DNA from: Cyanidioschyzon merolae
Lineage: Eukaryota
Assembly (NCBI GenBank): GCA_000091205.1
Contig: AP006496.2
Reading direction: 5' to 3' (one strand)
DNA length: 64,000 bases
Position 1 is the first letter of the stretch; every line of letters starts with the position of its first letter. The translations under genes and the position numbers were made by a program. Shown one piece after another: positions 6,597-53,669 of this stretch. The notes below the pieces were generated by a model that searched no databases, was not told the origin of the DNA, and worked only from the letters and a program-made list of their open reading frames with translations.

Positions 6597-7913
6597 ATGC
6601 AAATGACGTCATCAGAGACGCCTTTATACCCTTTTTCATTCACAATCTACCAGGGCTGTGTAGAAACTTGGTCGGAGTGGGCTCGAGAGCCGGACGTTGT
6701 CGCCCTGGAGACACTGCTCCGAGTGTGCGGCGTACCCGACAGTGCTGTGCAGACGCTTTCCAGCGGTACGCCTTACATGACCGATCGACTGGTGTTTCCG
6801 GTGCTTCACATACGTCGAAACGCCGAGCAGTGTGGTGAAGCGCCGCTTCAGGACTTTGTAGTTAGTGGCTGGTACGCTTGTCGGGGCTTGTTGCTCGACT
6901 TGGGGGTGCTCTCACCAGGGCAGTGCACGCCGGTCGCAGAGTCGCTGGTCTCACTGGTCCGCGATCGACTGGATCTTGGTCGTTTGTATGAATGGTGGCA
7001 CATAGATGCGAACTATTCTAGCTTCACGAAGCGCTACTGGTCGACGTTGTACCAGCTGCCGTGGATGGCGCGATGGACGATGCCCCGGCAGGAACGCGAC
7101 GCGGTGCGTACACGTCTGCTCATGCAGAGCGCAGCGTATCGACAGGTGCTTCGTCGGACTCGACCGACTTCGTCCAGTGGCGGAGCTACTTTCCGCAGTC
7201 CTTTTCCACCGGAGCGACGGCAGCAGCAGGGTCAGGAACGTGACCTTCATTCAGCGTCGTGGTCTGACGCGTCTGCGGCGCCCGCAGCGACGGCAGGGGA
7301 AGCAGGTGCGGCCGCGCTGGAAGCCGCAGCAGATGCTGAATTCTGGTCTCTGGAGATTGAACCTGTCCTTGATGCTCTCGCTGCGATGCTGGGTGAGCAT
7401 CGCTATTTCCAGTGCAGCAAAACGCTAGCGCCCACGACGACTGCGATGGAATCGCAGAATGGACCAACGACTGCACCAGGTTACGTGGACGCAGTGGTAT
7501 ACGGCCATTTGCTCGTATATTTACAGATGGAGCTACCAGTTGCGAGTCGCTTACGGGCGCTCGTAGCACAGCGACCGACACTGCAGCGTTATGTGGCACG
7601 AATGCGAGACACGCACTTACATTCGTGTGCTGAGGAGCAATCTGGGGCGGCGGAAGGTGTGCCACCCAGGGTCGCATCCGCTGGTGATTTGCCACGACCG
7701 CATCCGTCGCATGCTTCGTGGCAGGCAACCGGTAGCGCAAGGTCGAGCAACCGGTCCAAAATGAGCTCGACGCCAGAGGAGGACGCAGCCCAAGAACGCC
7801 AATTGGCGAATCGCACATTCGTCTGGCTCGCTGTTGGCAGCTTTATCTTTTACGCTTTATTCGGGACAGCGCTCGATGTTCGCATCGGAGACAGCTCGTA
7901 CGATGCAACATGA
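6597..7913 (+). CDS. Metaxin/Sam37-like GST-fold mitochondrial outer-membrane protein
   Basis: Track ORF 6462..7913 starts with GTG; the first ATG is at 6597 (MQMTSSETPLYPFSFTIYQGCVETW...). A GST-C-like region, LDALAAMLGEHRYFQCS...PGYVDAVVYGHLLVYLQMELPVASRLRALVAQRPTLQRYVARM, resembles metaxin-1 (LTLLSQRLGSQKFFFGDAP...SLDAFVFSYLALLLQAKLPSGKLQVHLRGLHNLCAYCTHI). A C-terminal hydrophobic anchor FVWLAVGSFIFYALFG matches the metaxin-1 tail anchor. Confidence 0.55.
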   Translation: MQMTSSETPLYPFSFTIYQGCVETWSEWAREPDVVALETLLRVCGVPDSAVQTLSSGTPYMTDRLVFPVLHIRRNAEQCGEAPLQDFVVSGWYACRGLLLDLGVLSPGQCTPVAESLVSLVRDRLDLGRLYEWWHIDANYSSFTKRYWSTLYQLPWMARWTMPRQERDAVRTRLLMQSAAYRQVLRRTRPTSSSGGATFRSPFPPERRQQQGQERDLHSASWSDASAAPAATAGEAGAAALEAAADAEFWSLEIEPVLDALAAMLGEHRYFQCSKTLAPTTTAMESQNGPTTAPGYVDAVVYGHLLVYLQMELPVASRLRALVAQRPTLQRYVARMRDTHLHSCAEEQSGAAEGVPPRVASAGDLPRPHPSHASWQATGSARSSNRSKMSSTPEEDAAQERQLANRTFVWLAVGSFIFYALFGTALDVRIGDSSYDAT

Positions 7914-8407: not shown

Positions 8408-9679
8408 TCAGTCCATGAGCGGGAAAAGATACTCTTTGACAATATCACGCAGTAGAATGCGGGCATCGTCTGCCTGCAGATCACGTGTATCTGCAAGCAA
8501 GCACCTGACGCGCTCCGCGGCATTCCTCACGTTCTCGTCAACGACGGCACATGTTTGAGGGTGCTCCTGGTCAGACAAGCGCTGCATCCTGCGTACGCGA
8601 TGATTTGGTGATGGCGGTGGCCGCCTGGATGCACTGCTTGGCGCTGGGGGCGGCGAAAAACTCATATTGACGGCGCTCGTGCCGGCAGTAGCCTGCTGGG
8701 TCCGTTGGGCGTTCGCCTCAGAGGCGAACTCGTCGCCACCAGTGGACGCATGTGCGCTACACGACGCTGCGGAGCGACTGCGGAGACGCTGCATCGTGCC
8801 GGCAGCAGCAGCGTGACGGCGTGAGCACAGCATTTGCCGCAGGGCGACTTCGAAGGCCTCGGTTTTCGCGACAGCATCTGAGAGCGCCTGCACTGTACTC
8901 GCTCGGGTTGCAACCGTCTGCGATGTCGACAGGATACATGGCCAATCGCGCTGTTTGATCCAGGATAACATGGATGCATCGGCAGGCATGCCGAAGTAGT
9001 GGACAGTTAGTTCGTAGTACGCTGGGGCGCCCTGCTCAAACTCGAGGAGGTAGTCGAGAGGCACACGCTCGTGGCGCACCTGCACTGAAGGTCTGCTGCG
9101 CGGGAACGGCCGGTACCCCTGGGGATAGACGCGGAAAGCGCGCAGCGCAACCTGCCCGACTCGGCGGCTCCGGACCGGGTCCACGATGAGGATCACCCAG
9201 GGTCCTTGGCCGCTTTCCTGAACAGCACCGTGACTTGCCAGTTCACTTCGGCTGAGCCAGCAGCCGTATCCGTGATGCGAGCGGTACCAGCCGACAGCGT
9301 TCAAGGCGATGCCCGGCGTCAGTAGCTGCGAGCGGTTCTCGGGCAGTTGAGCGTCGCGCGCTGGTGACACTGGTACAGGCACTGTACCTGGAGGCGCGCA
9401 AGCAGGTGTCGCGTCCCAAACGACGACCGCTCGGCTCGACGCTCCTGGCGGCACGAAACCCCATAAAACCCCTTGTGTTTCTGTTGCGGAACACTGTTCA
9501 AAGCAGTGGCTTGTCACTTCGCTCAGCGCGAGCACCGAAACGTACACGTCGCGAAACGTGGTCGCTGTCGTTTCGGAACCCTGTTCGGACTCGTGCAGTA
9601 GCGTCGCTGTGCGCTCCAGCAAGGAGCCTGTCTCGCGGAGGCGACGCCAACCGCTAGGGTATGCGACGCGCTCGAGCAT
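8408..9679 (-). CDS. CSN5: COP9 signalosome subunit 5 / JAB1-like MPN (JAMM) domain protein with variant metal-binding motif
   Basis: 423-aa ORF; the ATG at 9677-9679 was verified. It aligns with human CSN5: [32 protein letters not shown] vs [49 protein letters not shown] vs [49 protein letters not shown] vs [55 protein letters not shown]...[16 protein letters not shown] vs [25 protein letters not shown]...LLWNKYWVNTLSSS. Confidence 0.85.
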   Translation of the reverse strand: [423 protein letters not shown]

Positions 9680-9989: not shown

Positions 9990-11137
9990 AAATGGAACGC
10001 TGAACTTGTCGATCTGTTCCTGCGTATCGATTGGGTTTTCCGAACGATTTACCAGAGACAGAGCTTCGAGATTCGCAGTGCAGCAATACGGGATTACGGA
10101 TTCATAGATAATTTCAGGAGTTTCCATCGTCTTGTCGCGGAAATTCAGGATGCCAAGGATATCGGGGTGATTCGCAACACACTCGAACAAAGGCACCTCA
10201 AATAGATGATCGTATCTTCCAGTGCATACGCACGAGGCTCCGCTCTCCTCCAATCCCTGCGGTACCAGCATGCTCTAATCAGGTATGCTTCGGGTTTTCG
10301 ATTTCTGTGGTCCAAGGCAACTCGCGGACGCGACAATGCGCGCTGTTGAATGGACGAGGAAGACAACTCGGCGTCGTCGTTTGAAGAGTTGTTGCATGGA
10401 GAAGGGTCCTGGATGCTGACTTGAGGCATCGCAGCGATCGACTCGAATGGAGTGTCGAAGGAGCAACCCATATCGACCGGATTTCCATACTGGATTTCCG
10501 TCTCGGTTCTTGGTTGTGCATGGAGAACATTGCGTTCAGCAAATCCTCTATTGATCGGAAGGGCGTGCGCTTGCTTGTGAAGCGAACAGCGTACCCGCCT
10601 ATGCGACTGCCCAGAGGAGGCTCGTATCGGAAGTGTGCGGCACTCGGCATTGAGACTGAGGCAGATATCATGGGGCGCCCTCTCTACCAGTCCGGGGCAC
10701 GTACCGGGCGAAGAAGCGAGCGGTGACGCACCCCAGGGCGGCGCTCGGAGGCGGAGGCGGCACGGGAGGCCCACGGGAATACCCTGCGGTAGCCGAACGA
10801 TACCCCGACGAATTCGCTCCCCGGATTCATACAAAGCAAAGGCACGTAGTAAGGGAAACATGTATCGATTGTGACGCCAATGCATACACTGCATGAAGAA
10901 CTGCTGCAGGCGGCGACCTTGCGACTCGAACGCTGCCATCAAAGTCCTTCGACTGCTGCAAACGTAGCCAGTTCGAAAGGAACGACCGAGTTGTTCACAG
11001 CCGGCGCTCAGAGAGAGTCTAAAGGAAGCGGTTGCCGAGAAATCCCGCATATATCGGTGTTGATCACAGTCGAAAGAAGCCAAACCAGTAGCGTATACGC
11101 CCGAGTTGTCAAACTGGACCCATTCCATCTCAGTCTG
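9990..11137. repeat. Inverted repeat copy A (~1148 bp), partner at 21790-22937
   Basis: All ORF-track peptides in this interval reappear on the opposite strand in 21790-22937. Examples: 10635..10874(+) 79 aa is identical to 22053..22292(-); 10145..11152(-) matches 21799..22782(+) with 3 substitutions. Position mapping is posA+posB=32927. The interval is AT-richer than flanking genes. Confidence 0.9.
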
Positions 11138-11443
11138 GTATGGCTCCATCATAACCCTGGACCCCCGGGTGTGCGTGTGCTATCAATAACCATCGGGAGA
11201 CCGCAGTTCCATTTTAGACGTCGCCAGGTGCTGCTCATCCTGGAACCGTGTTCAGCTCAATACCAGCGAGCAAGTCGATGGAGCGATCGCCCTTGGCGTA
11301 CGTTTTCGCTGGCGAGGGCGTTGCAGATGCGCCTCTCGCTGGCCAGCCTGCGGAGATGCAACATTTTTGTAATCGTAGTAGGTAGCGGGTCTGGGAAGTG
11401 GTACCAGGACGGCTCGTTTCTCTTGACTAGACGCGCATGGCTC

Positions 11444-13714
11444 ATGACGACGTACTTCGATCGGCTGCTGGCGTCGCTTTCTTCAGCGCTCGAGATTAAT
11501 GCAGCGACGCTGAGCGGTGCTGCGGATATCATCGTCATCCAACAGCCCGACGGACGCCTGGTGTCGACTCCGTTTCACGTCCGTTTCGGTAAACTGCAGT
11601 TACTTAAAAGTCGCGAGAAGGTCGTGGAGATTGAAGTTAGTCCGCTTGATGAAGTTGAAGCGGTAGCGGTAGCAAAGCAGCTGGAGCGCTCCTCCACGGC
11701 GAGCACCGGGCCACCGCCACCCCAGAGCCTAGAAACATCACGGGGCACGTACAGGGCACCGCTTACCATGCTGCTTGGCTCAGCTGGTGAGGCTTTTTTT
11801 GTAGAAGAGACATCTTCGGAGTCTACCGTCGAACTCGAGGGACAAACCCCCGGCGAGGCAATATGGGTGGAACGCGCCCCCAGTGAGCCACCTTCACCCT
11901 GCAGCGAAACCTTCCGCGACTGGCGCTCAGCAGCTGAGCCCAGTGCCGCGTCAAGCTGCCGAGAAGAGTCCCAGAGCGCCTTTAGCGATAGCGAGCAGCC
12001 CACTGGAGCCGAACGCCTCCAGCTGCCTCCGTCGGACTCCGCAGACCTGAGGGCATCCTCGCAACCAGAGTCGCGATGGAGCAGCCGCTTCGGCAGTATG
12101 CTACGAAGGCAACGTCAAACGGGGGCGGAAACACGCTCCTCATCGAGCACTCCGACAGATGTCATAACTTTGGGGATAGAGTCGCTGACGTCATCGCCAC
12201 CGGCCGCTGCACAGCAACAAGCTGAACTGCTGGCATCGCGGGCTTCATCGCGATCCTCACTAGAGGGCGAGAGGTCTCCCGCAGCTGGCGTGGAGTCGCT
12301 TGTCTTTGAAATGGATGACAGTGGCCAAGCGATGACTGAGTCCAGTGTACCGGAAGTTGCAGCCGCTACCGCACCCGCACCCGCAGCATTCACGAGCGCC
12401 ACGGATGTGCATGCTGTCGGCAAGCCCCCCGTTGCCTTGTCGCTATGTGGGCACTTGATCACACCCCAAATGACCCCTGTACAAGTACATGAGGTATTCG
12501 AAGCAAACCGCATATCCCTTGATTACTTTCGGGGTCATGTTACCATTCTCAATCATCCAGATATTCTGGTACGCATTCATGACCAAATCTACCCGCTACG
12601 AGTCGCAACACCGTTGCTGTACGGCATGTTGGCCTTTAACACGGTGCTTGATCCCCATGCGGTCGATCGACAAACAACAGCACCAAAAGCGCGACCGCCG
12701 AGAGCGCGTTTTACCTGGTTCGGGCTTCGAAGCAGTCAACTAGAGGACTCTAGTACCGATTTGTTGCAGCTGGGTGAGCCACTCACGGAAGCGGAAACTG
12801 AACTCAAGCCACCGATGGAAACAAGCACGACCAGCACCGCCGAAGCGAAGCAACATCTGCTGCCGCTGCACCGACCGCGATACATGCGCAAGTCGTTGTA
12901 TCCGAGTTCTGCGCAGTTGGCGCAACTCGGCCTGCGACCCGGAACTAATCTGATCACGTTCACAGTGCAGAGTCGATTACAAGGAGTTCAACGAGTTTGT
13001 AGTCGAATCTATTTGTGGCCCCATGATGTGCGTCTATGCATCAGCGACGTCGACGGTACCATTACACGTAGCGATGTGCTTGGACAAATTCTCCCGCGTG
13101 TCGGCAAGGACTGGAGTCATCAGGGCGTCGCCAGTTTGTATCGAGCCATCGCTCGGAACGGGTACAAGTTTCTCTATTTAACATCGCGTGCGATAGGACA
13201 GGCGTCGGCTACTCGAAGCTACTTGACAACGCTGCAGCAAGAGGGGGGTCTTGGTCTTCCCGACGGGCCGCTCCTGCTCTCCCCGGATCGGGTGATCGAG
13301 TCTTTCACGCGCGAAGTGCTTCGACGGCGTCCGCAAGACTTTAAGATTGCAGCATTGGAGCAGGTCCGTCGACTCTTTCCACCGGGCAACTACAATCCGT
13401 TTTTCGCGGGTTTCGGGAACCGCGACTCTGACCGCATCGCCTATGCGGCCGTTGGGGTGCCACCAGAGCGCGTCTTTATTGTGAACGCTCGCGGCGAGCT
13501 GCAGGTGGGTAACCACGTATACAGTGCGCTCTCGTCGTTCAACGCGCTGCAGAAACTCGTTGACTCCATCTTTCCCGACATTTCCACCGTTTCTGGGCAG
13601 CAGAAAGTAATGGAAGTTCACGAAGCGCATGCCTTTAATGATTATCAGTATTGGAAGCGACCCTATTCACCGACGGGAAGTAGCAGCGACGCTGTATCGC
13701 GTTTCTTTTCGTAG
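11444..13714 (+). CDS. LPIN: Lipin / Pah1 Mg2+-dependent phosphatidate phosphatase (N-LIP and C-LIP/LNS2 domains)
   Basis: Track ORF 10871..13714 (GTG start) is 947 aa, but lipin homology begins exactly at the ATG at 11444: [65 protein letters not shown] vs human lipin-1 MNYVGQLAGQVF...[45 protein letters not shown]. The C-LIP domain carries the catalytic DxDxT motif: [45 protein letters not shown]...[13 protein letters not shown]...GPLLLSP...FGNRDSD. Confidence 0.93.
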   Translation: [756 protein letters not shown]

Positions 13715-14086
13715 ATGGGTGGATGTTTTCCTGCCTGCGGACTGTACTTGGACGCTTCTGGGTCGATGCGCGGCTGCACGCTGAGCACGAAGCTATCGAA
13801 TAACCGCAGTACGGGCTGCCTGATCACTGCGATACTTGAATGGGCTCGTTGTCGTCCAGAGACGGTTGAGAGGCGCCACCAAGGTTGGTTGGTTGGTTGG
13901 TTCAGTGTCTGGGCACACACTGGCCACAAGCGTGGCGCTGCGCAACGCAGGAATCTTGCACTGGTCGATGTATCCCCGAGGCAAGTTCTCGACGCAATGC
14001 TGCAACTGTTTGAGAACGCAGATAGCCACGGGTTGAGCATTGCTACCCATCAGTACGCCCTCGTTCGTAGCAAATCCCAAGCGGGT

Positions 14087-15340
14087 TCAAGCATCGGACT
14101 GATCACTGTGATGCTTGGTTCGCTCCTCCCAGGACGTTGCCGGGAGGTTGCTCCAGAATGCTGCCGGTCTCTGGACAAAATATCGCGGTGCTCGACGATG
14201 GGCACGCTGACGCCTATTCTCGCGTAGCAGTGTAAAGTACGGCAGACAGCACAGGAGAAAGGCAGCCGCGTTGGACACCAGCAGCATGACCAGGTCGGTC
14301 CACCAGAGCACGTTACTGCAGCAGGGCAGCTTCGACGCGACCGCCGCTGCACTGCAGGTGCAGTCGGGACCACAACGACCAAAAGGCGTTTTGCCCGACA
14401 CGGCATTCACAATGAAAATAGCCTCAGTGATGATGAGTGAAAGGAAATACGACAACAATACCGCGGCGCCGATGATGCCGGCGAGGCCGGTCGCCTCCAC
14501 TGGTCGCTTTGCGATTCTTGTGAAAGCAACAAGAATGAGCCCGTAGCCGCCCACCGAGAGCCATAGAACTGCGGTGGTGTAGAGGGTCACCCCCATGGAT
14601 ACCGAGCACGGAGTCGCGTGACGATAACGATCCGCAGAAATGATAATAATGACGACAAAGGGCCAGACAAAGAGGGCCAATGCCAACATGGTGACCCCAA
14701 AGGCGAACAGCAGCAGACGCTTCAGGTTTTCGCGACTGGAGAGATGGCGCTGGTGAAAGCGACCCAGCATGTCGCCAACGTTGCGGCCCAGGCGACCGGG
14801 CTTGAGATTCCCCGCAAAATGTCGCCAGGAAAAATCCTGCAAGATGAGTTGACTTCCGCGCCAACGTACCGGCTTGGCGGCAACCTGACTCGAGTCCATG
14901 TTCGAACGTTGCATCTCTGCAATCTGCTGAGCGTACCAGTCGGAGGTGAAGAGCTGACCACCGCTCGGAGACGTTCCGGTTTCGGGCACGGAGGTGCCGC
15001 TTCTGTCTTCGTCCAACGTTTCTGGGCGCTGTAATGAGTGCAGACTGAACCCGCTACGCTCTTGTTTCGCAGTCGCTGTGTAGAGACGCTCGGCATATTG
15101 ATAGAGGGCAAGCGTTTCTGGCTCGGCCTCTTTCTGGAGCCAAGTATTATACAGATGCTTTCTGCGGAAAGTACTGGGGTCTGTTTCGTACGAACCAGAT
15201 GGAAGGGTTAATGTGGGCGGATCTCCAGCGATACTGGAGATGTCCGGGCCTGTCGCTTGCGCATCCGCTGACCCCAGCGCTGCCTGCAGCTCCACGAGGG
15301 ACGGAACGCGTCTAGGCGCCCGCTGTTTCGCCGCATCCAT
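14087..15340 (-). CDS. Predicted 4-TM membrane protein with Cys-rich loop (unassigned family)
   Basis: 417-aa ORF; the ATG at 15338-15340 was verified. It has a ~190-aa hydrophilic N-terminal region and four hydrophobic helices: LLLFAFGVTMLALALFVWPFVVIIII, VTLYTTAVLWLSVGGYGLILVAF, LAGIIGAAVLLSYFLSLIITEAIFIV and LWWTDLVMLLVSNAAAFLLCCLPYF. A Cys-rich loop CGPDCTCS...CCS lies between TM3 and TM4. Confidence 0.4.
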   Translation of the reverse strand: MDAAKQRAPRRVPSLVELQAALGSADAQATGPDISSIAGDPPTLTLPSGSYETDPSTFRRKHLYNTWLQKEAEPETLALYQYAERLYTATAKQERSGFSLHSLQRPETLDEDRSGTSVPETGTSPSGGQLFTSDWYAQQIAEMQRSNMDSSQVAAKPVRWRGSQLILQDFSWRHFAGNLKPGRLGRNVGDMLGRFHQRHLSSRENLKRLLLFAFGVTMLALALFVWPFVVIIIISADRYRHATPCSVSMGVTLYTTAVLWLSVGGYGLILVAFTRIAKRPVEATGLAGIIGAAVLLSYFLSLIITEAIFIVNAVSGKTPFGRCGPDCTCSAAAVASKLPCCSNVLWWTDLVMLLVSNAAAFLLCCLPYFTLLRENRRQRAHRRAPRYFVQRPAAFWSNLPATSWEERTKHHSDQSDA

Positions 15341-16387
15341 GGGTGCTTTCAGAGCGAGCCTGCCACTGTCCAGGGCGAGTTCCGTTCATCGTCGTGCTCC
15401 CGCGCGGGAACAGTGACCACCAGCACCGGAGAACGGCGTTGGATTTCGCACCAGTTGCCACAGGTACAGAGGACGTCGCTAGGCGTGAAGTCGCAGTGTG
15501 CGGATTCAGCAGGTGCTGGGGCAAGAGAGCCAATCAGGGCGGGATGGAAACCCCAAACGACAGAGGCCTCCTCGTCGACTCGGCAGATTCGTGACGCACT
15601 GAGCGCCGTGTACGATGCAGCGCCTCTAATCAATACTAGGTCGCTATTCGGTAAGTCAGGTGTAAATATCACCGCTGTTGGAAGCGAGTTCGGCGTTTTC
15701 GCGGAAGCGCCAGGTACTGCACGTAGCTTCCGCGGTGGCTCCTCGTTCAGACCAGTCCCGGGTCACCTGTTGGTGTATCGCTATTCAAAAACACAGGTAT
15801 GCGGCCAGGCTGGCAGTTTGCTCCGAACAACCAGCGTCGCGGTTGAGGGCGTCAGCCACGCTCTCTTCGTGGTGCGTTGCGGCTTCGCGACTGTGGTCTT
15901 CTTGACCAGTTTCCAAGCCCTGGCAGGAGTTGCGACCCTTGTGTACAATACAAATACAGACCAAGCTGACGCCCGAGACCGGTCCAAGGACCCCGTGTGT
16001 GCTTCCCAGGCTCCGGGTGTGTAGGCGCACTATAAGTGCGTCTAGCTAGCCTTGCCTGGGTACGAGCGTGTGTAGCCAGACCTCAGACCAGAGACCTCGG
16101 TGCCTCAGGGGACGCTTCCGTGCTCCAATAACCCCGAGCGGTGTCTTTTCTCAGAAACAGAGGCAGCTTTCAGACTCCGTAACCCAGTCCAGGCTTACGA
16201 GCTGCAGCCCGAATGGCAATGCGAAGTCGAGTAGCACACCGTTGGCGGTTTGATGCCCGGTGCTGGCGCCCGCCGGTCGAGAAACAGCACGGTGCCCGGG
16301 ATTGGCGTCGGAAGCCCAGTTGCTGTTGTTGTTGGGGTTGCGGGTGCACTGGGGTAGCGCCTGGTGCACAGATAACTGCTCGTTGCC

Positions 16388-17875
16388 ATGGAGGCTGTCA
16401 CCGGTTCTGATCCGTCCGATCCTCTAGTTGCAGACGTCCTGGGCTGTGGTCAGCTGGACCTCACTCGAGGGCTCATGCAACGGGCGTCTTCGGGGCCGCG
16501 TTTGCGACCTGGAGGGCGATTCCGTCAACACGCTGCCGCTCTGGAGGCGCTAACGAGGCTGCGGCAGGATCTAGAAGCTGAGGGTCCAGAGTCGAGTGCG
16601 ACTCAAGGGCAAAATACCGGTGTCAAATGGGACGTTCGCCACCCAGCGTTTGATCCTCGAAGCTATCTGTTCGAGGTTCACGTGGACACGTCCTATCAGG
16701 AGCTGGAACGCGGACTAGAGGAGTTAGCGCAGCGGAGGCAGCGTCTGGAGAAAGCGTACCTGCAAGCGGCAGTGCACTCACTTCCTGCGTACCTGACGAC
16801 AATATTCACGCTACTCCCGGAACTGGAACCGTCCGGTTCAACCTCAGGGCGAACGCATCCACTTGAGCAATTAGAGTCAACTTTTCGAGGGGCGTGCGCG
16901 CAGCTCAGAGATTTGTTCGAAACCTACCACAACATTGGGGTTTCGTTGAGCGCTTGGCAGTATACCTCTGTGCGGATGCGTATCGATCCCGAGATCGGAA
17001 TGATGTACAGACGGTTTCTGACTGCGCTGTTCGAGAGCGATGCAGCAGCAGCAGCTGCTGCTGCTGCTGCTGCCGCCGTGAGCTATAATACATTGATAGA
17101 ATTACGAGCTCAGGCACGCAACGGGCTTGCTCAACGTGAAGCGTCCTCGACAGGGACACGCGAGTGGACCGACGTGACTCTCCGCTCGATGGAGTTCCTG
17201 CTTCAGAGGCTGCGTTTCTGCCCGCGATTCCAGAATGGAGCCGCGTCGATTCCGTCCGCTGCTTTCTGGAAGAGCTTCGATGAAACCGTCGAGCAAATCT
17301 GGGCAGAATGCACTGAACCACGCCGCACGGTCGAGACGTTTTATCTCCTGCGTTTGGACGTTGCCAGTGAGACGCTTCGGGAACGTTGTGACGCACATGC
17401 GCTGCGTCTGAAGAGCACCATCTTGCGGAGCGCCTTATCCGCAGTGGAAAACACGAAAGCAGAGGTACCGGCTGCCGAGTGCAAGTTCACATCAGAAATA
17501 CCTTATACGGAGGTTTTCGCGGCGGCAGCCCAACTCGTTCTTGCGTACCTGCGGAAAGAGGTGATTGGAATGAGCCAGTTCGTTGCGAACCTTTTACACT
17601 ACGTGGATGCGGCACGTCAAGCCCTGCTTGGCCCGATTTTGAACGATGCGGAACGCGAAGCGTCGGCTCGACTGGTCCAAGTCCTGCGAGCATTCATCGA
17701 AACCTGCATAGATATATCTAGGGAGGCGATGGACGCAAATCGGTGGAAGCTGCTGGCTCCAGACGCCTTAACGCCAGAGCTATGGGGCTCGGAAGCGCTA
17801 GCAGAGCGTCTGAAGGGTCTTCTGGAGACCAGTCTGCAGGCTTTGGGGCAGATTCCTTCTGGACGAAGCAGTTGA
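16388..17875 (+). CDS. Hypothetical alpha-helical protein; weak resemblance to Vps51/COG8-type tethering-complex N-terminal region
   Basis: 495-aa ORF with a verified ATG start. The N-terminal region WDVRHPAFDPRSYLFEVHVDTSYQELERGLEELAQRRQRLEKAYL weakly resembles the FDP..YL coiled-coil signature of Vps51/Dor1-family subunits. There is an internal poly-Ala tract (A12) encoded by a (GCA/GCT)n microsatellite near 17041-17080. Family assignment is low confidence. Confidence 0.4.
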   Translation: MEAVTGSDPSDPLVADVLGCGQLDLTRGLMQRASSGPRLRPGGRFRQHAAALEALTRLRQDLEAEGPESSATQGQNTGVKWDVRHPAFDPRSYLFEVHVDTSYQELERGLEELAQRRQRLEKAYLQAAVHSLPAYLTTIFTLLPELEPSGSTSGRTHPLEQLESTFRGACAQLRDLFETYHNIGVSLSAWQYTSVRMRIDPEIGMMYRRFLTALFESDAAAAAAAAAAAAVSYNTLIELRAQARNGLAQREASSTGTREWTDVTLRSMEFLLQRLRFCPRFQNGAASIPSAAFWKSFDETVEQIWAECTEPRRTVETFYLLRLDVASETLRERCDAHALRLKSTILRSALSAVENTKAEVPAAECKFTSEIPYTEVFAAAAQLVLAYLRKEVIGMSQFVANLLHYVDAARQALLGPILNDAEREASARLVQVLRAFIETCIDISREAMDANRWKLLAPDALTPELWGSEALAERLKGLLETSLQALGQIPSGRSS

Positions 17876-18580
17876 AATAGCGCAGAGGCACGGAGCAGCG
17901 TTCTCATCAAAGCACTCGAAAATTCATGGATATCTGCATCGCATCGTTGCGGACATGGCGAAAGCGTCTCTGGAGGAGGCACCGCGGCGCTGCGACACAG
18001 CTTCACTACGCCTAACTCAAGCTGATCAAGTGCCCAGTGCGCCATACTCGTTCCAAGAAAAGTCACTGACCGATCGCTCTCGACCTGCGTCACACATGTT
18101 GTTACCCGCTTTTCGACGAAGCGTACTGAGCAGAAGATTGAAGTGCGCTGCGAAAGAGACAGGCGAAAGAAAGCGACTTTTGTGACAAACAGGTCATTGT
18201 GTTGTGCGCCACACGCCAGTAGAAAGATAAAATTGGCACCTTTGCATGCGGATGTGGAAGGGTGCCACTGCCTTACCGACTGGAAAAGTTTGCGGGTGCC
18301 TCAAGTCGCTCATACGGGTCGGGGTGTTTCGGAACCACAGCAGTCCCCGGGTACGATCCTTGAACCCGGGGCTCGATGCTGGTGCTCGTGCAACCCGCAG
18401 TGCGTCTTGGCGAGCGGCCTCTGGGATCGTCGGGGTCTGCGCACCTCTCTATCGCAAGATTTTATCGACGACGGGGATTCGTAAAAGCCTGTATTGAAAG
18501 TATGGAAAGCAAGGGGGGAACACAAGCAGCACGGCAGCGGGCGCGCCCGTGATCCAGTACTGGGCATCCGCCCGTTTTCG

Positions 18581-20617
18581 CTAGTCCGATGACAAGGAGC
18601 CCGCGAGCCGCTGAACGATGCATATATTCGCATCTGGCGGCAAACGATGCCCAGTCGAGTCGAGACGGTCCTCCCAGTGATGACCATCAGCATCGGTGTG
18701 GTACCGAACATGCCAGGTCTCGCCGGCGGTGTTGCGACCCCATCGACAACCGTGGTACTGCGGATGCTCGGCAGATGAGTCGGCGCGGCGGCTTTCAAAG
18801 TACCACTCGTACCATACTTGGGATTCGTGATTGTGTGGCAAGATTCGTGCATCCACACCGAACTTGTCCCCGAAACGGAATAGGACCTGGGGTTGGTTCT
18901 CGAGGCGGTACTCGCCATGACGCTCGAGCCACCAGTTGCCGTCTGGGTTACGTCGTACGCGGGCATCCTGCCACATGAGCGCTGAGAGCAACGGAAGACT
19001 CTGCATCGGTCCTGTGGGGAACGAGTCCACCGGTTTCGCATTGCACTCGGCAGCGGTACTCGACTGGCAAGGCAGCGCCGCATGGACGCCATCCTGGGCG
19101 CCTTCATGTTCAGAGATCGAAAGCGCACTGAGTGCAGTCATCGCGCCGGCGTATCGATCGGGGTGGCGTGCATGTCCGCAGGCCTCGATTTCCAGCGGAT
19201 GCTCGTTCGCTTCGTGGGAACTACGGGTAGAATGCGCACTAGGAGATCCCGAGGGAAAAGTGGTCCCTATGATTGACGCCAGATGCTCCCAGGGGCAATC
19301 GCTGTTCTCCTTTTCGGGCTCTGCAAGTGAGAAGCCAAGCGCCGATAGGCTTCTGCTGCTGCTGCTGCTGACGTTCTCGAAAACGGGCGCGTATAATTCA
19401 GCTCCAGGCATCGGCAACGAATACTGGATGCTATCATCCCAAGACGCTGGCAGAGATGCGCGTTTGCCCATTGGCCCTTTGCGGGGACCTGACTTCGATT
19501 GCTTCTCGGGTACATCTTGATTCCTTTCGCACAGCACTTGTATTTGTGGTTTGCTTTCCAGGCGCGCTCGGAATGGCGCTTGATTCTTCTCTATCTGCCC
19601 GAAAACTGTAGGGAATGCGAGATTCTCAGTTGTATGGACATTGGCGGATCGATGGTCCATCAGTTCTGAAGCAGGTAACTCGCTGCGGTGCGCTGTGTAT
19701 TCTTCATTCGTCGGTATCGCCGCGTCTTCGGAGTCGTCATTGGAATCCGACAAGGCGACGAAAGTGGCGCTGAGGGATAGATCATGCAGATTCGCATAAT
19801 GGCGACTATGGCGTCGGTACCACAGACGCTCGAGACGGTCGGGATCGTGCAGCTTCCGGCACGCGATTGTCTTGAGTGTCGGCCATGCACGCGCGCTGTA
19901 CAGCCGTACTGGCTTGGGTAGAGGCAGCAGCGGCAGCAGCCAATAGCACGGTTGCACATGCCGTATGACAGAAGCAGCCGATGCAGGGCTTTCAGGGAAC
20001 CTGCCTCTCGCAGGAGTGCGCTTGCGGCAGGAGCGGGCGAAGAGCGCGCTTCGCTCCTCACGCTCTCGGCTGCGTCTGCGCAAGCTGATGAGCACCAGCA
20101 CCCAGACGACCATCCAACCAGCTACATGGAGTGCAACAGGCACTCTTGGGAGCTGGAGCGGCGCGTGCTGCGAATGCCATCGCTCAGAAGCGCTCCACCA
20201 TGGGAGCCAAGAGTCCCGTCGAGCAGCGACCGCTCCCGATGGGAACGCCTCCGAAGCTGGAAAGCTGCTAGGTTCATGCAGGTCCACCGATAGCACGCAC
20301 CCAGACTGCGGCTCTAAAGGCCTGTAGAGTGTGCGGCCTTTCGTTCCTGTTGGAGCATCCCCGATCCCGTAAACAGAGCCCGCTGTATGCTCTTCTATTC
20401 CGGTTGACCCGGATGCCTCGCGCAGTTTCAGAGACTCGCGTTTTGAATGCCGCCTATACGGTGCGCGTGTTTCATGCAGCCGAAAATGGTCTTCGTTCAC
20501 GTTCGTTGGCGCATAGAGCGCAGCGTCGCGACCGTCTCGAGTTGCACGACCTCCGACGCCGTACGGATGCATATCCGGGGCGGTTTCCGACCAGGTTTCG
20601 CGCTGAGATCGCTGCAT
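18581..20617 (-). CDS. Hypothetical single-pass membrane protein with W/H-rich C-terminal domain
   Basis: Track ORF 18581..20707 (708 aa) begins with GTG; the first ATG gives 18581..20617. One strong TM segment, VPVALHVAGWMVVWVLVLISL, is followed by RRRSRERE. The C-terminal region NWWLERHGEYRLENQPQVLFRFGDKFGVDARILPHNHESQVWYEWYFE...WGRNTAGETWHVRYHTDADGHHWEDR has no family I can name. Confidence 0.4.
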   Translation of the reverse strand: MQRSQRETWSETAPDMHPYGVGGRATRDGRDAALYAPTNVNEDHFRLHETRAPYRRHSKRESLKLREASGSTGIEEHTAGSVYGIGDAPTGTKGRTLYRPLEPQSGCVLSVDLHEPSSFPASEAFPSGAVAARRDSWLPWWSASERWHSQHAPLQLPRVPVALHVAGWMVVWVLVLISLRRRSREREERSALFARSCRKRTPARGRFPESPASAASVIRHVQPCYWLLPLLPLPKPVRLYSARAWPTLKTIACRKLHDPDRLERLWYRRHSRHYANLHDLSLSATFVALSDSNDDSEDAAIPTNEEYTAHRSELPASELMDHRSANVHTTENLAFPTVFGQIEKNQAPFRARLESKPQIQVLCERNQDVPEKQSKSGPRKGPMGKRASLPASWDDSIQYSLPMPGAELYAPVFENVSSSSSRSLSALGFSLAEPEKENSDCPWEHLASIIGTTFPSGSPSAHSTRSSHEANEHPLEIEACGHARHPDRYAGAMTALSALSISEHEGAQDGVHAALPCQSSTAAECNAKPVDSFPTGPMQSLPLLSALMWQDARVRRNPDGNWWLERHGEYRLENQPQVLFRFGDKFGVDARILPHNHESQVWYEWYFESRRADSSAEHPQYHGCRWGRNTAGETWHVRYHTDADGHHWEDRLDSTGHRLPPDANICIVQRLAGSLSSD

Positions 20618-21789
20618 ATCCCCTGTCAATGATTCAAAGAAAAAGTGTCTACTAGTACACGTCACCAATAGTTCCTGTAGCGTCAATAGAGCAGTTTCGT
20701 TGGTCACTGCTTAGAAACGCAAGGAATATGAATGCCAGTTGCATGTGGCGATAACGGCTGTGCCGTACGCGTGGCATGCACGGATCAGCGAGATCGCCTG
20801 GCGGGAAGCCGCCATACGATGCGTGCATGCGTACGTGCGTGCGCGATTCCGCAATGCGTAACGCCTCGGCGGTGCGCCGCGCGTTGCTGATCGCTATCGC
20901 ATCGCAGTCTTTGCCCTCAAAAGTGTTCCGCATTCAGGTGCATGTCATCAAATGCTTTTTCGCTGCTTACCGCGGACGCATGCAAAGTGCTTTCGTTTGA
21001 AGTGATGAAAAAACCAGGGGAAAGTATGGACATGCAAGTCGGGAATCCTAGGGGGGTCGTCATCGCCGGGTGCAGGAAAAACAACAAAAAATCCTCTTCT
21101 CGTTGACTCTCGAGCGAAGAAGAAGAACAATGGACGAAGAAGAAATGAGGAGATCGTCGAGAAAAGGCGTTTGCCCGATGGAACGATGACGAGACTTTGG
21201 CGCCATACAGGGCACGAGTCCGAGGACTCTTTGTATCAGTGAATTCCACCAGCGAGAACGAACGCATAGAGTTCGTGAACAGAGACTTCAACATCGCCAT
21301 AAAAATCCGACGATGTGCGGTACTGAAGACAAGACCCGCAGGGCTGTGGCTATCTAACTTTATGGAGCAGCCTCTCGGGCTCGAAGCATACGATGAGAAG
21401 CTGAAGCAGATAGCACGTGTACAGTCGCAAAAGGCTGAGAAGCGTCTGCGCCTGGGTAGATATACATCCTCGACATGGTCCTGCGACCTTTACGCAGCGT
21501 CCAACGAGGTACTGGGATCGAGGTGGCACGAGAGAGCGCCCGCGTTCGTGCGAGCTTTAGCGCGCAGCTTCAGTGTGCATGGGGATCCCGCAACTGATGG
21601 CACGTGGGTCAACTGGGCCGCTTCAGCTGCTACCCGAACGCCAATATGCAGAAGCTCCCTGCCTCTTGTGATTCGCTTTGCACATGTATCCGTCTTCTGA
21701 ACAGGGGCATTTCTGTTATTTCCATTCAGAGGCAGATCAAGGAAAGACAGCGAGAGTGAATCAGTGCACAGAAGGGTTTACGCTAATGT

Positions 21790-22937
21790 CAGACTGAGAT
21801 GGAATGGGTCCAGTTTGACAACTCGGGTGTATACGCTACTGGTTTGGCTTCTTTCGACTGTGATCAACACAGATATATGCGGGATTTCTCGGCAACCGCT
21901 TCCTTTAGACTCTCTCTGAGCGCCGGCTGTGAACAACTCGGTCGTTCCTTTCGAACTGGCTACGTTTGCAGCAGTCGAAGGACTTTGATGGCAGCGTTCG
22001 AGTCGCAAGGTCGCCGCCTGCAGCAGTTCTTCATGCAGTGTATGCATTGGCGTCACAATCGATACATGTTTCCCTTACTACGTGCCTTTGCTTTGTATGA
22101 ATCCGGGGAGCGAATTCGTCGGGGTATCGTTCGGCTGCCGCAGGGTATTCCCGTGGGCCTCCCGTGCCGCCTCCGCCTCCGAGCGCCGCCCTGGGGTGCG
22201 TCACCGCTCGCTTCTTCGCCCGGTACGTGCCCGGGACTGGTAGAGAGGGCGCCCCATGATATCTGCCTCAGTCTCAATGCCGAGTGCCGCACACTTCCGA
22301 TACGAGCCCCCTCTGGGCAGTCGCATAGGCGGGTACGCTGTTCGCTTCACAAGCAAGCGCACGCCCTTCCGATCAATAGAGGATTTGCTGAACGCAATGT
22401 TCTCCATGCACAACCAAGAACCGAGACGGAAATCCAGTATGGAAATCCGGTCGATATGGGTTGCTCCTTCGACACTCCATTCGAGTCGATCGCTGCGATG
22501 CCTCAAGTCAGCATTCAGGACCCTTCTCCATGCAACAACTCTTCAAACGACGACGCCGAGTTGTCTTCCTCGTCCATTCAACAGCGCGCATTGTCGCGTC
22601 CGCGAGTTGCCTTGGACCACAGAAATCGAAAACCCGAAGCATACCTGATTAGAGCATGCTGGTACCGCAGGGATTGGAGGAGAGCGGAGCCTCGTGCGTA
22701 TGCACTGGAAGATACGATCATCTATTTGAGGTGCCTTTGTTCGAGTGTGTCGCGAATCACCCCGATATCCTTGGCATCCTGAATTTCCGCGACAAGACGA
22801 TGGAAACTCCTGAAATTATCTATGAATCCGTAATCCCGTATTGCTGCACTGCGAATCTCGAAGCTCTGTCTCTGGTAAATCGTTCGGAAAACCCAATCGA
22901 TACGCAGGAACAGATCGACAAGTTCAGCGTTCCATTT
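21790..22937. repeat. Inverted repeat copy B (~1148 bp), partner at 9990-11137
   Basis: Reverse complement of 9990-11137 at about 99% identity; about 7 amino-acid substitutions across the mirrored ORF-track peptides, e.g. YARVVKLD vs YTRVVKLD and IRNTLEQ vs IRDTLEQ. Confidence 0.9.
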
Positions 22938-25126: not shown

Positions 25127-25170
25127 TCGAATGCGTGCGTGCGTGCGTGCGTGCGTGCGTTCGCGCGCGC
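25127..25170. repeat. (TGCG)n / (GCGT)n tetranucleotide microsatellite, about 7-8 units, alternating purine-pyrimidine
   Basis: Seen directly: gaatgcgtgcgtgcgtgcgtgcgtgcgtgcgttcgcgcgcgc. It lies immediately 5' of the RhoGAP coding region. Confidence 0.85.
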
Positions 25171-25243
25171 TCCTTCAGTCGAAGCTTCACCAGCGGCACG
25201 TCTCTCGTGCTGCTTCAGCTGTTTGTTGGTGTCGATCAGGAGC

Positions 25244-26581
25244 ATGTTGCCAGACACTGTCGTTCCAGCAGAGATACGTAGAGAAACCTCTTGCACTTGT
25301 GATGCTGAAGCGTTCAACGCGACGACAAGAGATATGAGCGCTGTGTCCCAAGTACCTGAGGTCTTGGCGACTGCATTGCCCGTGGCGGGTAGCGCAGTGG
25401 CGGGCGTAGCTGCAACCCCCGACTCTTTGACACAATCTGATCACCAGGTGATCCCTGGAAGCACATTACCTGTGACGTCGTCAACGACAGCGGGGCGCTT
25501 TCAAAATATCGAAGATGGAACAGAGCCAACTGCGAGTGCGTCGTCAGCACTCCGAGTGACGCTGATTGGGCGCGATAGCCTGCGGCCCGAAGGGAAGGGT
25601 CCCGGGCAGGGCGGCCCACCGGTGCGTACCGAAGTTGCGAACCGGGTGAAAGTGTTGCTTTTCAAGCAGCTGCAGAACGGTATTCATCCTGGAGGTGGGC
25701 ACAAATCTGCGGCATCGCATACTGAGCGCCTGGTCGTGAACGAGCCGGAAGCTCCCCACGGGTGTTTCTGTCGACGAAGTAGCAGTGCGCACCGCACCCC
25801 AAAGCCTGCAGTGTCGGCGCCAGCAAGCGCGTCCCAGGTCGACGACGAATCAGCACCCATTGCTGCCTGTGTTCTATTCGGGACGGACCCACAGCAACCC
25901 TGGAATCGTTCCGCCGTGCACCGCATCAGGCTTTGCGTTCGCCATCTTCGCGAGTGTCGCGGCTGTGAAACACCTGGTATTCTCGGAGCGTCCGGATCGG
26001 CGGGAGAAGTCGAACGACTCCGACTGCAGACTGCACATTCCGGGAGTCTTCCGACGCAGGCAGACCCGCATTCGATCGCGGGGCTCCTGAAGGACACGCT
26101 CCGGCGAACGCGTCCTGCACTGTTGTCATCAGATGGCTACCAGTGCTTCCTCGAAATGGCAAGGAAAAGCGGCCCGGGTACCTCCTGGGATGAGGCCATC
26201 AATATTTTCCGTCTCTGGCAACGTATTAGTGCGAGTCAACCGCATTCCTACTGTCGAGATGTACTTGTAGAGATTTTACTCCTGCTCAACGAGGTAAGTC
26301 GCCTCAACGACATCAACAAGATGACGAGTCGCAACCTGGCGGTGGTCATGGCGCCCTGCCTTTGTGACTGGGACCCGCTCCGGCCGAATGCGCTCGAGCA
26401 ACTGCATGTCATGACGGATATGGTGCAGTATCTGATAGAACGCGCGAAATTCGTCGCGGACATGGAGGGTCACCCCGGTACTGGACACGAGCGCATCAAC
26501 CTCGCACCGGTCTCTTGCGCGTACCATTCGAGCGCCGAGTCGCTCAACGCTGCGACCGTGAAACCGCCATGCTACGCGTAA
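25244..26581 (+). CDS. RhoGAP domain protein (arginine finger replaced by Gly)
   Basis: Track ORF 25139..26581 starts with GTG inside a (TGCG)n microsatellite; the first ATG is at 25244 (MLPDTVV...). The RhoGAP domain is clear: CRGCETPGILGASGSAGEVERLRLQ...DPHSIAGLLKDTLRRTRPALLSSDGYQCF...DVLVEILLLLNEVSRLNDINKMTSRNLAVVMAPCL, compared with the consensus GIFRLSGSAGKVKQL...[20 protein letters not shown]...NKMSVQNLATVFGP. Confidence 0.85.
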   Translation: MLPDTVVPAEIRRETSCTCDAEAFNATTRDMSAVSQVPEVLATALPVAGSAVAGVAATPDSLTQSDHQVIPGSTLPVTSSTTAGRFQNIEDGTEPTASASSALRVTLIGRDSLRPEGKGPGQGGPPVRTEVANRVKVLLFKQLQNGIHPGGGHKSAASHTERLVVNEPEAPHGCFCRRSSSAHRTPKPAVSAPASASQVDDESAPIAACVLFGTDPQQPWNRSAVHRIRLCVRHLRECRGCETPGILGASGSAGEVERLRLQTAHSGSLPTQADPHSIAGLLKDTLRRTRPALLSSDGYQCFLEMARKSGPGTSWDEAINIFRLWQRISASQPHSYCRDVLVEILLLLNEVSRLNDINKMTSRNLAVVMAPCLCDWDPLRPNALEQLHVMTDMVQYLIERAKFVADMEGHPGTGHERINLAPVSCAYHSSAESLNAATVKPPCYA

Positions 26582-28116
26582 AGACACCACGACCTCGTAA
26601 TCGCGTTCCTGTCAGAGGTGACCTCAACTGGAGGCTTCGACCCATTCCCGCCCGCTGGTTGCACTTGCATCACGACCATTTGCAAAAGCGAGACCCACGG
26701 GATGTTTCATTCCGATGGAACGACCACGCTACATACGCTGTTGGTGTGTAATCGCCGCGAATGTCTGGCTTTGCAGTTGCTGGGTTCACGTCGGTAGCAG
26801 GTCCGTCACTTGGCGCTGAAGCTGCAGAACATTCTCGGCGAGTGTGCCTGTCGAGCACAGCAGGCGAGCGAATGCGGGAACATGGTTACCGTGTAACGTC
26901 GCCCCGAAGGTCGGAAAGCCCCAAAGACGCAGTCCTTTGAATGCGGCTGGCTCAGTGACCCTGCTGGTCAGCCTGGTGTTCCAGTACCTAACGCCGTTGC
27001 GCACTGAGCACGCGATGGAAAGGCCGCAAACCATGCTGGGCACCTGGTATCCGAGCGCATGTGGCGCCGAAGTTATGGCCTCTGGCTTGGTCCTATAGCA
27101 CGCCGCGCTGCTCGTTTTAAGCAGCACGCCTTGTCTAATAGGCATGCTTCGGGCGCGGCGAGCACCAGGGACCTGGCGGGTCCGCGGACTCGTTCCAGGA
27201 CCTGCGGGCATGGCGCACATGTGTGGGTTTGTGTGTACACGGAACCCCGACACGAGAGATATCCAATGCCACGATCGACTCTTGGTAGAACATAGTATCT
27301 GCCGGATATTCTAGGCATCCCACAGGCCGCGGAACGGCGCCCAGTGGTCAGTCTGCAAGCCTCGGGGATGCCATGCGCCATGGACAAACAGGCGACGCAG
27401 AGCAGCGCCCTCGAGTAGACGTCCGTCGGGGTAAAACATGAGGTCGCGCTGACCCTGCAACGCGCCTCTGGCAGCGTTTTCAATAGCGGGGTAGGCGTCC
27501 GTTTTGGGTTTGCCTCCTGGAGCGTTCGCGGATCGCTCAGACCCGTATTTTATCGGAGGATACTCCCCGGAAACAGCGAGAGCATAAAAGCGTCGGCAGC
27601 GGAGCTGGGGTCTGTTCCTGGTCGCTTCGCAGGCTCCGTCCATTCATAACGCTCCAGTTCCATGCATTCATCGATCTCACACGACCTACCATGTAAAGTT
27701 TCTGACGGTACTGATTGCCGTCCAGCTTGCAAGCGGGGTCAGATGCTGCTTGCAGCCATCGCGCCTGAACAAGCGACCTGTATACCATGTTCGCACACAA
27801 AAAAGCGCACAAGGTGTTTTTCTATTCATTGGCATGCGCTGCGGTGCTCTCATGGCAAAAGCGTGCAGTACGGGCGGCGCGACTCGAACGCGCGATCTTG
27901 TGCGTGTTAGGCACACGTCATAACCATCTAGACCACGCCCGCGCGACGAATAAGCATGCACAACAATTGATATATAAATGCTTTGGAATCTGTGCGCAAG
28001 GATGGCGAGTATGATTCGGATTCGCAGGGGCGCTGCTCCGAGCCCCGAGGTACTGGACGTCCTCGTTGACTAGCGGAGCGTCTCAGACAGACCCAAGAGC
28101 GTTGTGGGTTTCACTC

Positions 28117-34100: not shown

Positions 34101-35400
34101 CGTCGACGAGTCCGAAGACGTGTTCCAGTGCCTGGTTCACCAGCAACTGGCTACGCGTATCCGCGCATGCAGACTCCTCGATCAAGTCCTGGCAACGGGC
34201 AGTATTCCGGTGCTTGTGCGGAAAGCATTCCTGGTACCACTCGTTGAAAAATTGATCGGATTAGCGAGTACGTCAAGTCGTGTGCATTCCGAAATAGAGC
34301 AACTACAGACGAGCTGGTTGGCGAGCGCTCAGGCGCTATTGGCGGAGCGCCTCCTGGCATCGCTGCCGTCAAGCTGGTGTTGGCAACGCTTTGCGCTGCA
34401 TCTTCATCGTTTCGAACGACTAGCATCCAGCCAGAGGAGCGCAAGCACTCGTGAAGATGCCCATTCAGACGCGCGTATGTCCGCGAATGCACGACGACTC
34501 GGGCAAGCGCAGGTATTGGTGGTCTATGCCCGAGCGCTCGCTGCGCTGCCGAGTATACCGCAGGAGGTATCGGAAGCGCAGCAAATAGATCAAGCACCGG
34601 ATACACAACACGCACCGATTATGGTGCAAAACGAGCATCGAACAGTGTCACCAGAGACACAAAAATCGGGGAATGCTCCCGAGCAGCTGCTCGAGCGACT
34701 GGATGCACTCCTGGTGGCGACAAGTCTCCGTGACACCGCAGCAGTCGAGGCAGACTGCCCAGCGAGTGATCGGCACCTGGAACGAATCGTTTGGGAAATC
34801 GTGCTGCGCCTTCTCCAAGCGCTTCCGAGGCAGCAGCAGCAGCAGCGTGCAGTCTGGGTACCGCGTCTCGTTACCCGCTGGATACGTACGCTCGGTTTAC
34901 GCAACCAGCAACGGCGAGACGACGCACGCGAAGCGCTTCAGTTGTTGCTGCGGATTCTGGGACCTGAATGGCTCTGGTGCATCGCTCGCCAGTTAACGGA
35001 GACGGTGCAGGTATCCGCATCGAGAAAAGCGCTGCAGCATTCGGAAGGCACTTGGCGACTTCACGTCTGGGCGTACACGTTGCACATGTTGCTGCAGACA
35101 ACGCTGGAGTGTGATGCGTACCCCACTTGGCATCTGGATCTGGATACGCTCCAACGTGTACTCGGACTAGTGTTGCTGGTGGAGTTTCGGGATCCCGTTC
35201 TCGAAGCAGAGAAGCGCGTATCCAAGCTCTATGCGGATATCCGCGAGGTTCATGTACACAGCGCGGAGCGTTGTCTCACGCTGCTGGGTCGAGTATGGCC
35301 GATGGATCGGCTAGCGAACATGGTGCTTGCGTTGGAGCTCTTTGTGCGGGCGTTTCGTGAACGACTCGCGTTTGATACCAGTGGGTCGACGACGACGACG

Positions 35401-35466
<66 letters not shown>

Positions 35467-35692: not shown

Positions 35693-35738
<46 letters not shown>

Positions 35739-53631: not shown

Positions 53632-53669
<38 letters not shown>

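Follow-up and report, generated by a model that had tools for sequence, protein, structure and literature searches.

What has a pair of nearly identical, oppositely oriented repeats done to the four genes that it brackets on chromosome 14 of Cyanidioschyzon merolae 10D? The stretch analyzed here, 64,000 nucleotides (nt) of that chromosome (hereafter the window, in whose numbering all positions are given), contains two copies, A and B, of an intergenic element, and between them lie the genes for lipin, a 417-amino-acid (aa) membrane protein, a 495-aa Sec5-like protein and a 708-aa protein, which by the numbering of the annotation should be CMN061C-CMN064C. A preliminary description of the sequence had proposed that the inverted repeat is a substrate for flipping this block, and comparative gene order supports that idea: relative to sister genera, the block is reversed in the Cz. 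merolae lineage, and its breakpoints coincide with the two copies. As to the cause, we lean towards a crossover between the inverted copies, with gene conversion keeping them alike.

The comparison of gene order carries the main finding. In the window, the genes run Tom37-like(+), JAB/MPN(-), copy A, lipin(+), 417(-), 495(+), 708(-), copy B, RhoGAP(+), UTP20(+), whereas in Cyanidiococcus (locus L002) they run UTP20(-), RhoGAP(-), lipin(+), 430(-), 485(+), 688(-), Tom37-like(-), the numbers being protein lengths in amino acids. The outer genes keep the same order in both, but the four-gene block runs the other way; at gene-order resolution, the breakpoints are precisely the two spacers that house copies A and B. 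Between flanks that are themselves collinear, such a reversal places A and B at the breakpoints of an inversion that took place in the Cz. merolae lineage. A second Cyanidiococcus lineage (L003-L006) agrees as far as its contigs reach, to the 3' end of the 688-aa gene, and Cyanidium (L013) has the order UTP20(-), RhoGAP(-), lipin(+). Since the adjacency of RhoGAP and lipin is common to both outgroups, the 10D arrangement is the derived one. The lipin protein itself is 100% identical to a Joint Genome Institute (JGI) metagenome protein, 68% identical to the lipin of Cyanidiococcus yangmingshanensis and 53% to that of Cyanidium caldarium. The JAB/MPN gene is missing from the corresponding position of the Cyanidiococcus and Cyanidium loci, which points to a second local rearrangement or gene relocation accompanying the inversion. 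Separately, three independent assemblies of the second Cyanidiococcus lineage (L003, L004 and L005) all stop at about 17600-17626 in the numbering of those loci, inside the 3' end of the orthologue of the 688-aa gene, which suggests a repeat or an assembly-breaking feature at that point.

The repeat pair that occupies these breakpoints is precisely defined. A repeat search, a MAFFT alignment with 100-nt flanks and a BLAST comparison of the window with itself, the check that the preliminary description had recommended, agree that the arms are reverse complements over 1148 nt, with seven mismatches and no indels (99.39% identity). Chance cannot account for so long and close a match, which reproduces both the coordinates given earlier and their mirror relation (posA+posB=32927). 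The ends are sharp, as the sequence directly beyond either end of both copies is unrelated in the MAFFT and self-BLAST comparisons, and the copies lie 10.65 kb apart in opposite orientation. The distances to the inner genes were also accurately described: 307 nt separate copy A from the lipin start codon at 11444, and the gap of about 1.1 kb on the other side measures 1083 nt from the start of the 708-aa open reading frame (ORF) at 20707. Two other statements needed qualification. The copies had been called AT-richer than their surroundings, which is true of the outer ~500 nt of each copy (GC content 0.50-0.51), while the remainder, at 0.57-0.58, is gene-like. Copy B had been placed in a divergent spacer, and the 708-aa gene and RhoGAP do flank it, although the RhoGAP ORF begins about 2.2 kb beyond the copy and does not directly adjoin it. 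Between the 708-aa gene and copy B also lies a member of a second repeat family, R2 (20967-21476, minus strand), which is inverted relative to a partner at 4780-5261; the two are about 480-510 nt long and about 71% identical.

The element is not confined to these two spacers. A search with nhmmer revealed three further diverged copies in the window (c42, c47 and c60), all on the plus strand and about 50-55% identical to A and B, which brings the total to five in 64 kb. When A or B was used with 1.5 kb of flank on each side, nhmmer homology to the old copies started and stopped within about 10 nt of the A/B ends; the 1148-nt arm is therefore one complete family unit rather than an arbitrary duplicated stretch. 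Units measure 1.15-1.39 kb, or 1.79 kb where c60 contains an insertion. This interruption of about 670 nt (60597-61269) has no match elsewhere in the window. Family sequence makes up about 6.3 kb of the 64 kb, a density that fits the published repeat content of Cz. merolae: repeats are reported to form 12.7% of its genome, versus 0.59% in Cyanidiococcus, and to explain its larger intergenic regions (Cho et al. 2023, PMC9812998). The element was undetected in the examined Cyanidiococcus and Cyanidium loci, consistent with the low repeat content reported for the former genus. It resembles both the intergenic repeats described for Cz. merolae (PMC9812998) and the 'WSV486-like' interspersed repeat, of which 253 copies with a mean length of 3.2 kb are known (Nozaki et al. 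2007, PMC1955436), in being interspersed and intergenic and in containing truncated or hypothetical ORFs annotated as genes; the units here, at 1.15-1.4 kb, differ in size from the WSV486-like average. Most likely, the family belongs to the repeat fraction expanded in Cz. merolae and is non-coding or only vestigially coding.

Several more specific identities were considered and set aside. The ends of the element read CAGACTGAGATGG...GCGTTCCATTT, their sole terminal match being a 6-nt internal ATGGAA/TTCCAT, and in agreement with the preliminary description we found neither terminal inverted repeats nor target-site duplications, whether the flanks were paired as for insertion in situ, for insertion before the inversion or for replicative inversion. 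With no transposase either (no Pfam match, no confident fold), a class II transposon with terminal inverted repeats or a miniature inverted-repeat transposable element was rejected. A known RNA gene or a tRNA-derived short interspersed element was ruled out by Rfam, which returned nothing for the whole window at the gathering threshold, and by ARAGORN, which found one tRNA-Val outside the element. We also dropped the notion of an element consistently pointed at a downstream gene, since three of the five spacers separate divergent genes and either orientation would face some gene start. A common transposon family, with many dispersed copies, target-site duplications and no structural role, had been named as a finding that would refute the proposal; dispersed copies do exist, target-site duplications are absent, and a structural role is indicated.

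Variation within the element shows a further property of the pair. Among 19 element sequences we counted 25 variable sites, ten of which (element positions 29, 226, 348, 444, 447, 726, 744, 746, 935 and 1002) are polymorphic both in A-type copies, on the lipin side, and in B-type copies, on the RhoGAP side; this sharing indicates that A and B exchange sequence. Within 10D the two copies differ at 7 sites, while 10D A differs from wild A copies at 8-14; the wild B copy of L014 shows 4 differences to the wild A copies of L011 and L012 and 7 to 10D B. The divergence between A and B is thus 0.61%, though both copies hold the same sites in all sampled strains, and the genome-wide divergence between 10D and MS1 is 0.71% (PMC13353863). 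An A-B divergence no larger than that between strains, together with the shared sites, is a signature of concerted evolution. The preliminary description had alternatively regarded the pair as copies of a mobile or promoter-associated element kept alike by gene conversion; with a dispersed-family unit and shared A/B polymorphisms, this proved largely right, and it is compatible with the inversion. A comparable process may have affected c42 and c47, which share a 787-nt tract at 99.4% identity (41794-42580 = 47154-47940), with the remainder only about 50% identical, so that the tract looks like a sharply bounded copied patch, or conversion tract. As direct repeats, its two copies flank LETM1 (43526-46231), and a crossover between them would delete that gene.

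Independent metagenome assemblies provided a view of the junctions in other strains. Through element ORF variants, look-ups of the 417-aa protein and one metagenome scan, we gathered a set of 17 contigs that span the whole element and both flanks. Thirteen have the 10D-type junction of copy A (lipin-element-JAB) and two that of copy B (708-element-RhoGAP); one of the latter, L021, starts on the RhoGAP side and extends across copy B and the entire block into copy A. The other two, Ga0078972_1002912 (L016 and L018; 53.9 kb) and Ga0080006_1118312 (L017; 59.3 kb), come from two samples; in both, one element connects the lipin flank exactly with the RhoGAP flank, the junction expected of the ancestral orientation. 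Its reciprocal, 708-element-JAB, was seen in none of the 17. The element haplotypes of the two alternative contigs show 6 differences, so the contigs do not represent the same molecule. In L018, which is 99.2-99.4% identical to 10D, the order is 708(+), 495(-), 417(+), lipin(-), element, RhoGAP(+), UTP20(+), with the block in its ancestral orientation. These contigs suggest that the orientation is polymorphic in Cz. merolae, with short-read mis-threading as an alternative, as all are short-read assemblies, in which a 1148-nt repeat with distinguishing sites 200-270 nt apart can be threaded wrongly. Three possibilities are therefore to be considered: a polymorphic orientation, a very recent flip in one lineage, or a switch between copies in about 2 of 17 assemblies.

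The left part of L018 deserves a separate description. Homology to the window stops at 21449, at the edge of the R2 repeat, and positions 1-3875 of L018 itself (JGI 3300005573), directly left of the 708-aa gene, contain a gene for an 816-aa protein with an NHL/arylesterase domain and a c42-like element, the sixth family copy. The closest named relatives of the NHL gene, at 50-51% protein identity, are from other Cyanidiales, and none is named from 10D; this may reflect either strain-specific gene content or a chimeric contig.

On balance, we consider it probable that a crossover between the inverted copies flipped the block in the Cz. merolae lineage and that gene conversion keeps the copies alike. 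Two near-identical copies of the element would have been present, in inverted orientation, before the inversion; an ectopic crossover between them, that is, non-allelic homologous recombination (NAHR), would have reversed the intervening segment, and non-crossover exchange would have maintained their identity at ~99.4%. Each inner gene would take along its own flank of 0.3-1.1 kb and meet the same 1.15-kb element in either orientation, so that its promoter-proximal context would be little changed and the flip nearly neutral. As expected of NAHR, homologous sequences lie in inverted orientation at both breakpoints, long and similar as measured above, and intrachromosomal homologous recombination between short repeats is known to work efficiently in 10D (PMC13353863). 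We also considered a site-specific invertible segment driven by a recombinase; a Pfam scan of all block and repeat ORFs matched only lipin, JAB and, weakly, Sec5, with no recombinase in or beside the segment, and this candidate was rejected.

Several observations weigh against a crossover between pre-existing copies. The other family members, at their ~50-55% identity to A and B, are too diverged for homologous recombination, and since two old copies could recombine only if they already resembled each other, this particular copy must in any case have been duplicated recently. The pre-inversion state, including any earlier copy beside the JAB gene, is not visible. L018 lacks the reciprocal junction and has other DNA, the NHL gene and a diverged family copy, to the left of the 708-aa gene, so that it is either not a simple two-copy flip or a chimeric contig. 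In addition, L018 and L019 are identical over 8326 aligned block positions, yet the junction in L019 is of the 10D type, a pattern explained equally well by an assembler that changed copies within the repeat and by a flip in the very recent past. Finally, most of the shared polymorphisms were read from consensus sequences of short reads, in which both copies could be mixed. The same identical 8.3-kb block haplotype, found with either a JAB-side or a RhoGAP-side junction, leads to a bolder idea that we hold to be rather improbable: the 10.65-kb segment could be an active flip-flop, with both orientations within single clonal lineages, driven by frequent recombination between A and B. If true, the segment would naturally report how often ectopic recombination takes place in a haploid model alga that is competent for homologous recombination, and would hint at an active part of the expanded repeats in reshaping local gene order.

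The strongest competitor, which we judge unlikely but well worth weighing, is a duplicative inversion, in which a single element stood in the ancestral RhoGAP-lipin spacer and one event both inverted the segment and made the second copy. It could have proceeded by intramolecular replicative transposition of the element or by repair of a break, with template switching or fill-in. The close similarity of the copies would then date the event, and an earlier second copy would not be required. In the ancestral-orientation haplotype (L016/L018 and L017), the lipin-RhoGAP spacer is exactly where a single A/B-type element is found; copy A keeps the left junction of this ancestral element while copy B keeps the right one. 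The reverse-complement target duplications expected of such an event are nevertheless absent from the flanks when these are read by eye: outer-left ...CAGCATG and inner-right ...CTAATGT are not complementary, and neither are inner-left GTATGGCT and outer-right TAACCCGG. There also seem to be only two copies with at least 90% identity, the members listed of the 90% ORF cluster having a lipin-side or a 708-side N-terminus, and the rest of the family has diverged much too far to have supplied a recombination partner; against this, the shared polymorphisms show that the copies recombine anyway. Both copies have the same extent, that of a complete family unit, which agrees with duplication of the element as such, but the element has no recognizable transposase, and a duplication created by staggered breaks is not expected to coincide with the ends of a dispersed-repeat unit. 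A breakpoint duplication from staggered breaks was accordingly regarded as unlikely, because the duplicated piece is exactly one complete family unit.

Three further explanations fall well behind these two: coincidence, a gene duplicate kept by selection, and an artefact of assembly. Under coincidence, which we regard as improbable, unrelated breakage would have occurred in two repeat-rich spacers, and similar copies would have been inserted or homogenized there afterwards. With five family copies in 64 kb, intergenic breakpoints would often lie near one, and the 787-nt patch of c42 and c47 demonstrates local homogenization that involved no inversion; however, both breakpoints fall in precisely the spacers with the only two near-identical copies, which are inverted, and the contigs with alternative junctions change flanks exactly at the element.

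It is more doubtful still that the pair is a recently duplicated protein-coding gene kept by selection. Each copy contains an ORF annotated as a hypothetical protein, CMN060C in copy A and CMN065C in copy B, and this frame of 327-335 codons is unbroken in all 17 sequences that were aligned, of which a 44-member cluster supplied 15. By contrast, stops and frame breaks interrupt the diverged copies c42, c47 and c60, the identity of A and B extends past the ORF out to the element ends in the MAFFT alignment, and the population variants in the ORF comprise about 11 replacement versus 7 silent changes by our own count from the aligned variants. The codon-usage score of the 335-aa ORF is about zero, compared with +0.04 to +0.23 for real genes of the window, Pfam returned no match to the repeat ORFs, and an AlphaFold2 model of CMN060C built from an 11-sequence alignment reached a mean pLDDT (predicted local distance difference test) of 45 and a pTM (predicted template modelling score) of 0.25, with no confident fold. 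A codon-position test among family copies did give a slight, marginal third-position excess, and a motif, CRTL..SGR..RRVRC.LH.QAH.VPFDRGFVERDV, recurs in short ORFs of many metagenome contigs (proteins P0122-P0131). The most conserved part of the family, a core of about 110-200 nt (10486-10687 and 22240-22441), translates to this motif and may go back either to an ancient protein or to a DNA or RNA element that is conserved as such. An exhaustive HMMER protein search yielded just 12 weak, unnamed matches that share only a short motif, a profile search of a word-indexed protein database with the motif family recovered only two clusters, both already known, and no paper on CMN060C or CMN065C was found in the literature. 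Both are probably ORFs that derive from the repeat and not genes, and they may be remnants of an earlier coding sequence.

That the pair is a collapsed or mis-joined repeat of the reference, a possibility raised in the preliminary description, can be practically dismissed, since no point in its support was found, all four 10D junctions recur in 15 independent metagenome contigs from more than ten samples (L021 included), which excludes a mis-assembly, and the 10D reference was finished telomere to telomere (PMC1955436).

The features of the locus are listed in the table below.

Table. Positions of the repeat copies, their reading frames and the surrounding genes in the window
Feature	Position	Strand	Remarks
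Copy A	9990..11137	-	Element position 1 = window 11137 (lipin-facing); position 1148 = 9990 (JAB/MPN-facing)
Copy B	21790..22937	+	Position 1 towards 708-aa gene; position 1148 towards RhoGAP
Inter-copy segment, 10.65 kb	11138..21789		Reversed relative to Cyanidiococcus
335-aa ORF	10145..11152	-	Identical to CMN060C (BAM81192.1); first 5 codons in lipin-side flank; hypothetical protein
327-aa ORF	21799..22782	+	Identical to CMN065C (BAM81197.1); annotated hypothetical protein
Lipin	11444-13714	+	Inside block; Pfam lipin match
417-aa membrane protein	14087-15340	-	Inside block; 4-TM protein of the preliminary description
495-aa Sec5-like protein	16388-17875	+	Inside block; weak Pfam Sec5 match
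708-aa protein	18581-20707	-	Inside block
Tom37/GST_C-like gene	6633..7892	+	Orthologue of the gene after the 688-aa gene in Cyanidiococcus; collinear left flank
JAB/MPN-domain gene	8408..9679	-	Left outer neighbour; Pfam JAB; CSN5 of the preliminary description
RhoGAP	25139..26581	+	Collinear right flank; divergent neighbour of lipin in both outgroups
UTP20	28066..38706	+	After RhoGAP here and in both outgroups; right flank collinear
c42	41689..43076	+	Diverged family copy upstream of LETM1; ~50-55% identical to A/B over the full unit
c47	47040..48429	+	Diverged family copy between LETM1 and fibrillarin
c60	60040..61827	+	Diverged family copy; 60040-60596 and 61270-61827 with ~670-nt interruption

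Other features of the window were recorded in passing. The tRNA-Val(AAC) gene, a single one, lies at 27868-27942 on the minus strand, between RhoGAP and UTP20. Exact look-ups of the fibrillarin and LETM1 ORFs gave no match, probably owing to differing gene models. Many runs of the trinucleotides GCA, GCT and GAC occur in coding regions, where they encode poly-Ala, poly-Ser and poly-Asp tracts, at positions 17033-17085, 35377-35472, 35695-35747, 45416-45468, 53632-53675 and others.

Inversions flanked by repeats whose copies evolve in concert are a well-known kind of event; the present one in Cz. merolae was not found in the literature searched. Published synteny analyses used blocks of at least five genes (Cho et al., PMC9812998) or whole-genome dot plots, for which a micro-inversion of this size is too small, and neither PMC9812998 nor PMC1955436 contains the repeat pair or the inversion. 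Rearrangements between 10D and MS1 Ha3 have been reported on chromosomes 3 and 19, and not on 14, at dot-plot resolution, at which the comparison is uninformative about a 10-kb inversion on chromosome 14 (PMC13353863). The finding matters since Cz. merolae is prized for a genome that ranks among the simplest of any eukaryote, at 16.5 Mb and with hardly any introns or transposons, and synteny to its sister genera has been described as largely conserved. At single-gene resolution, this locus shows the lineage-specific intergenic repeats to be more than inert filler, as one pair marks a micro-inversion and neighbouring copies exchange sequence. 10D is a haploid, clonal strain that can be transformed by homologous recombination, and a second strain has been assembled from long reads; CMN060C and CMN065C can now be flagged in the annotation as probable repeat-derived ORFs.

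Three known systems offer comparisons. Staggered breaks, reportedly described by Ranz and colleagues in 2007 for Drosophila, are said to leave inverted duplications at inversion breakpoints; the likeness lies in the inverted duplicates at both ends of a derived inversion, whereas the duplicated sequence is arbitrary unique breakpoint DNA in Drosophila and one complete unit of a pre-existing dispersed family here. Intramolecular replicative transposition, by which IS26, Tn3 and Mu cause inversions, gives the same end product, with inverted copies bracketing an inverted segment and the old left and right junctions kept by one copy each, although our case lacks a transposase, terminal inverted repeats and reverse-complement target duplications, and its host is a eukaryote. 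Inversions by NAHR between inverted repeats are known from Ty elements in yeast and from inverted low-copy repeats in human. The Cz. merolae locus differs from these in that its repeat is an unclassified 1.15-kb unit and that the pre-inversion state and the crossover are not observed; it shares with them highly similar inverted sequences at the ends of the segment, an orientation that differs between lineages, and concerted evolution of the flanking copies.

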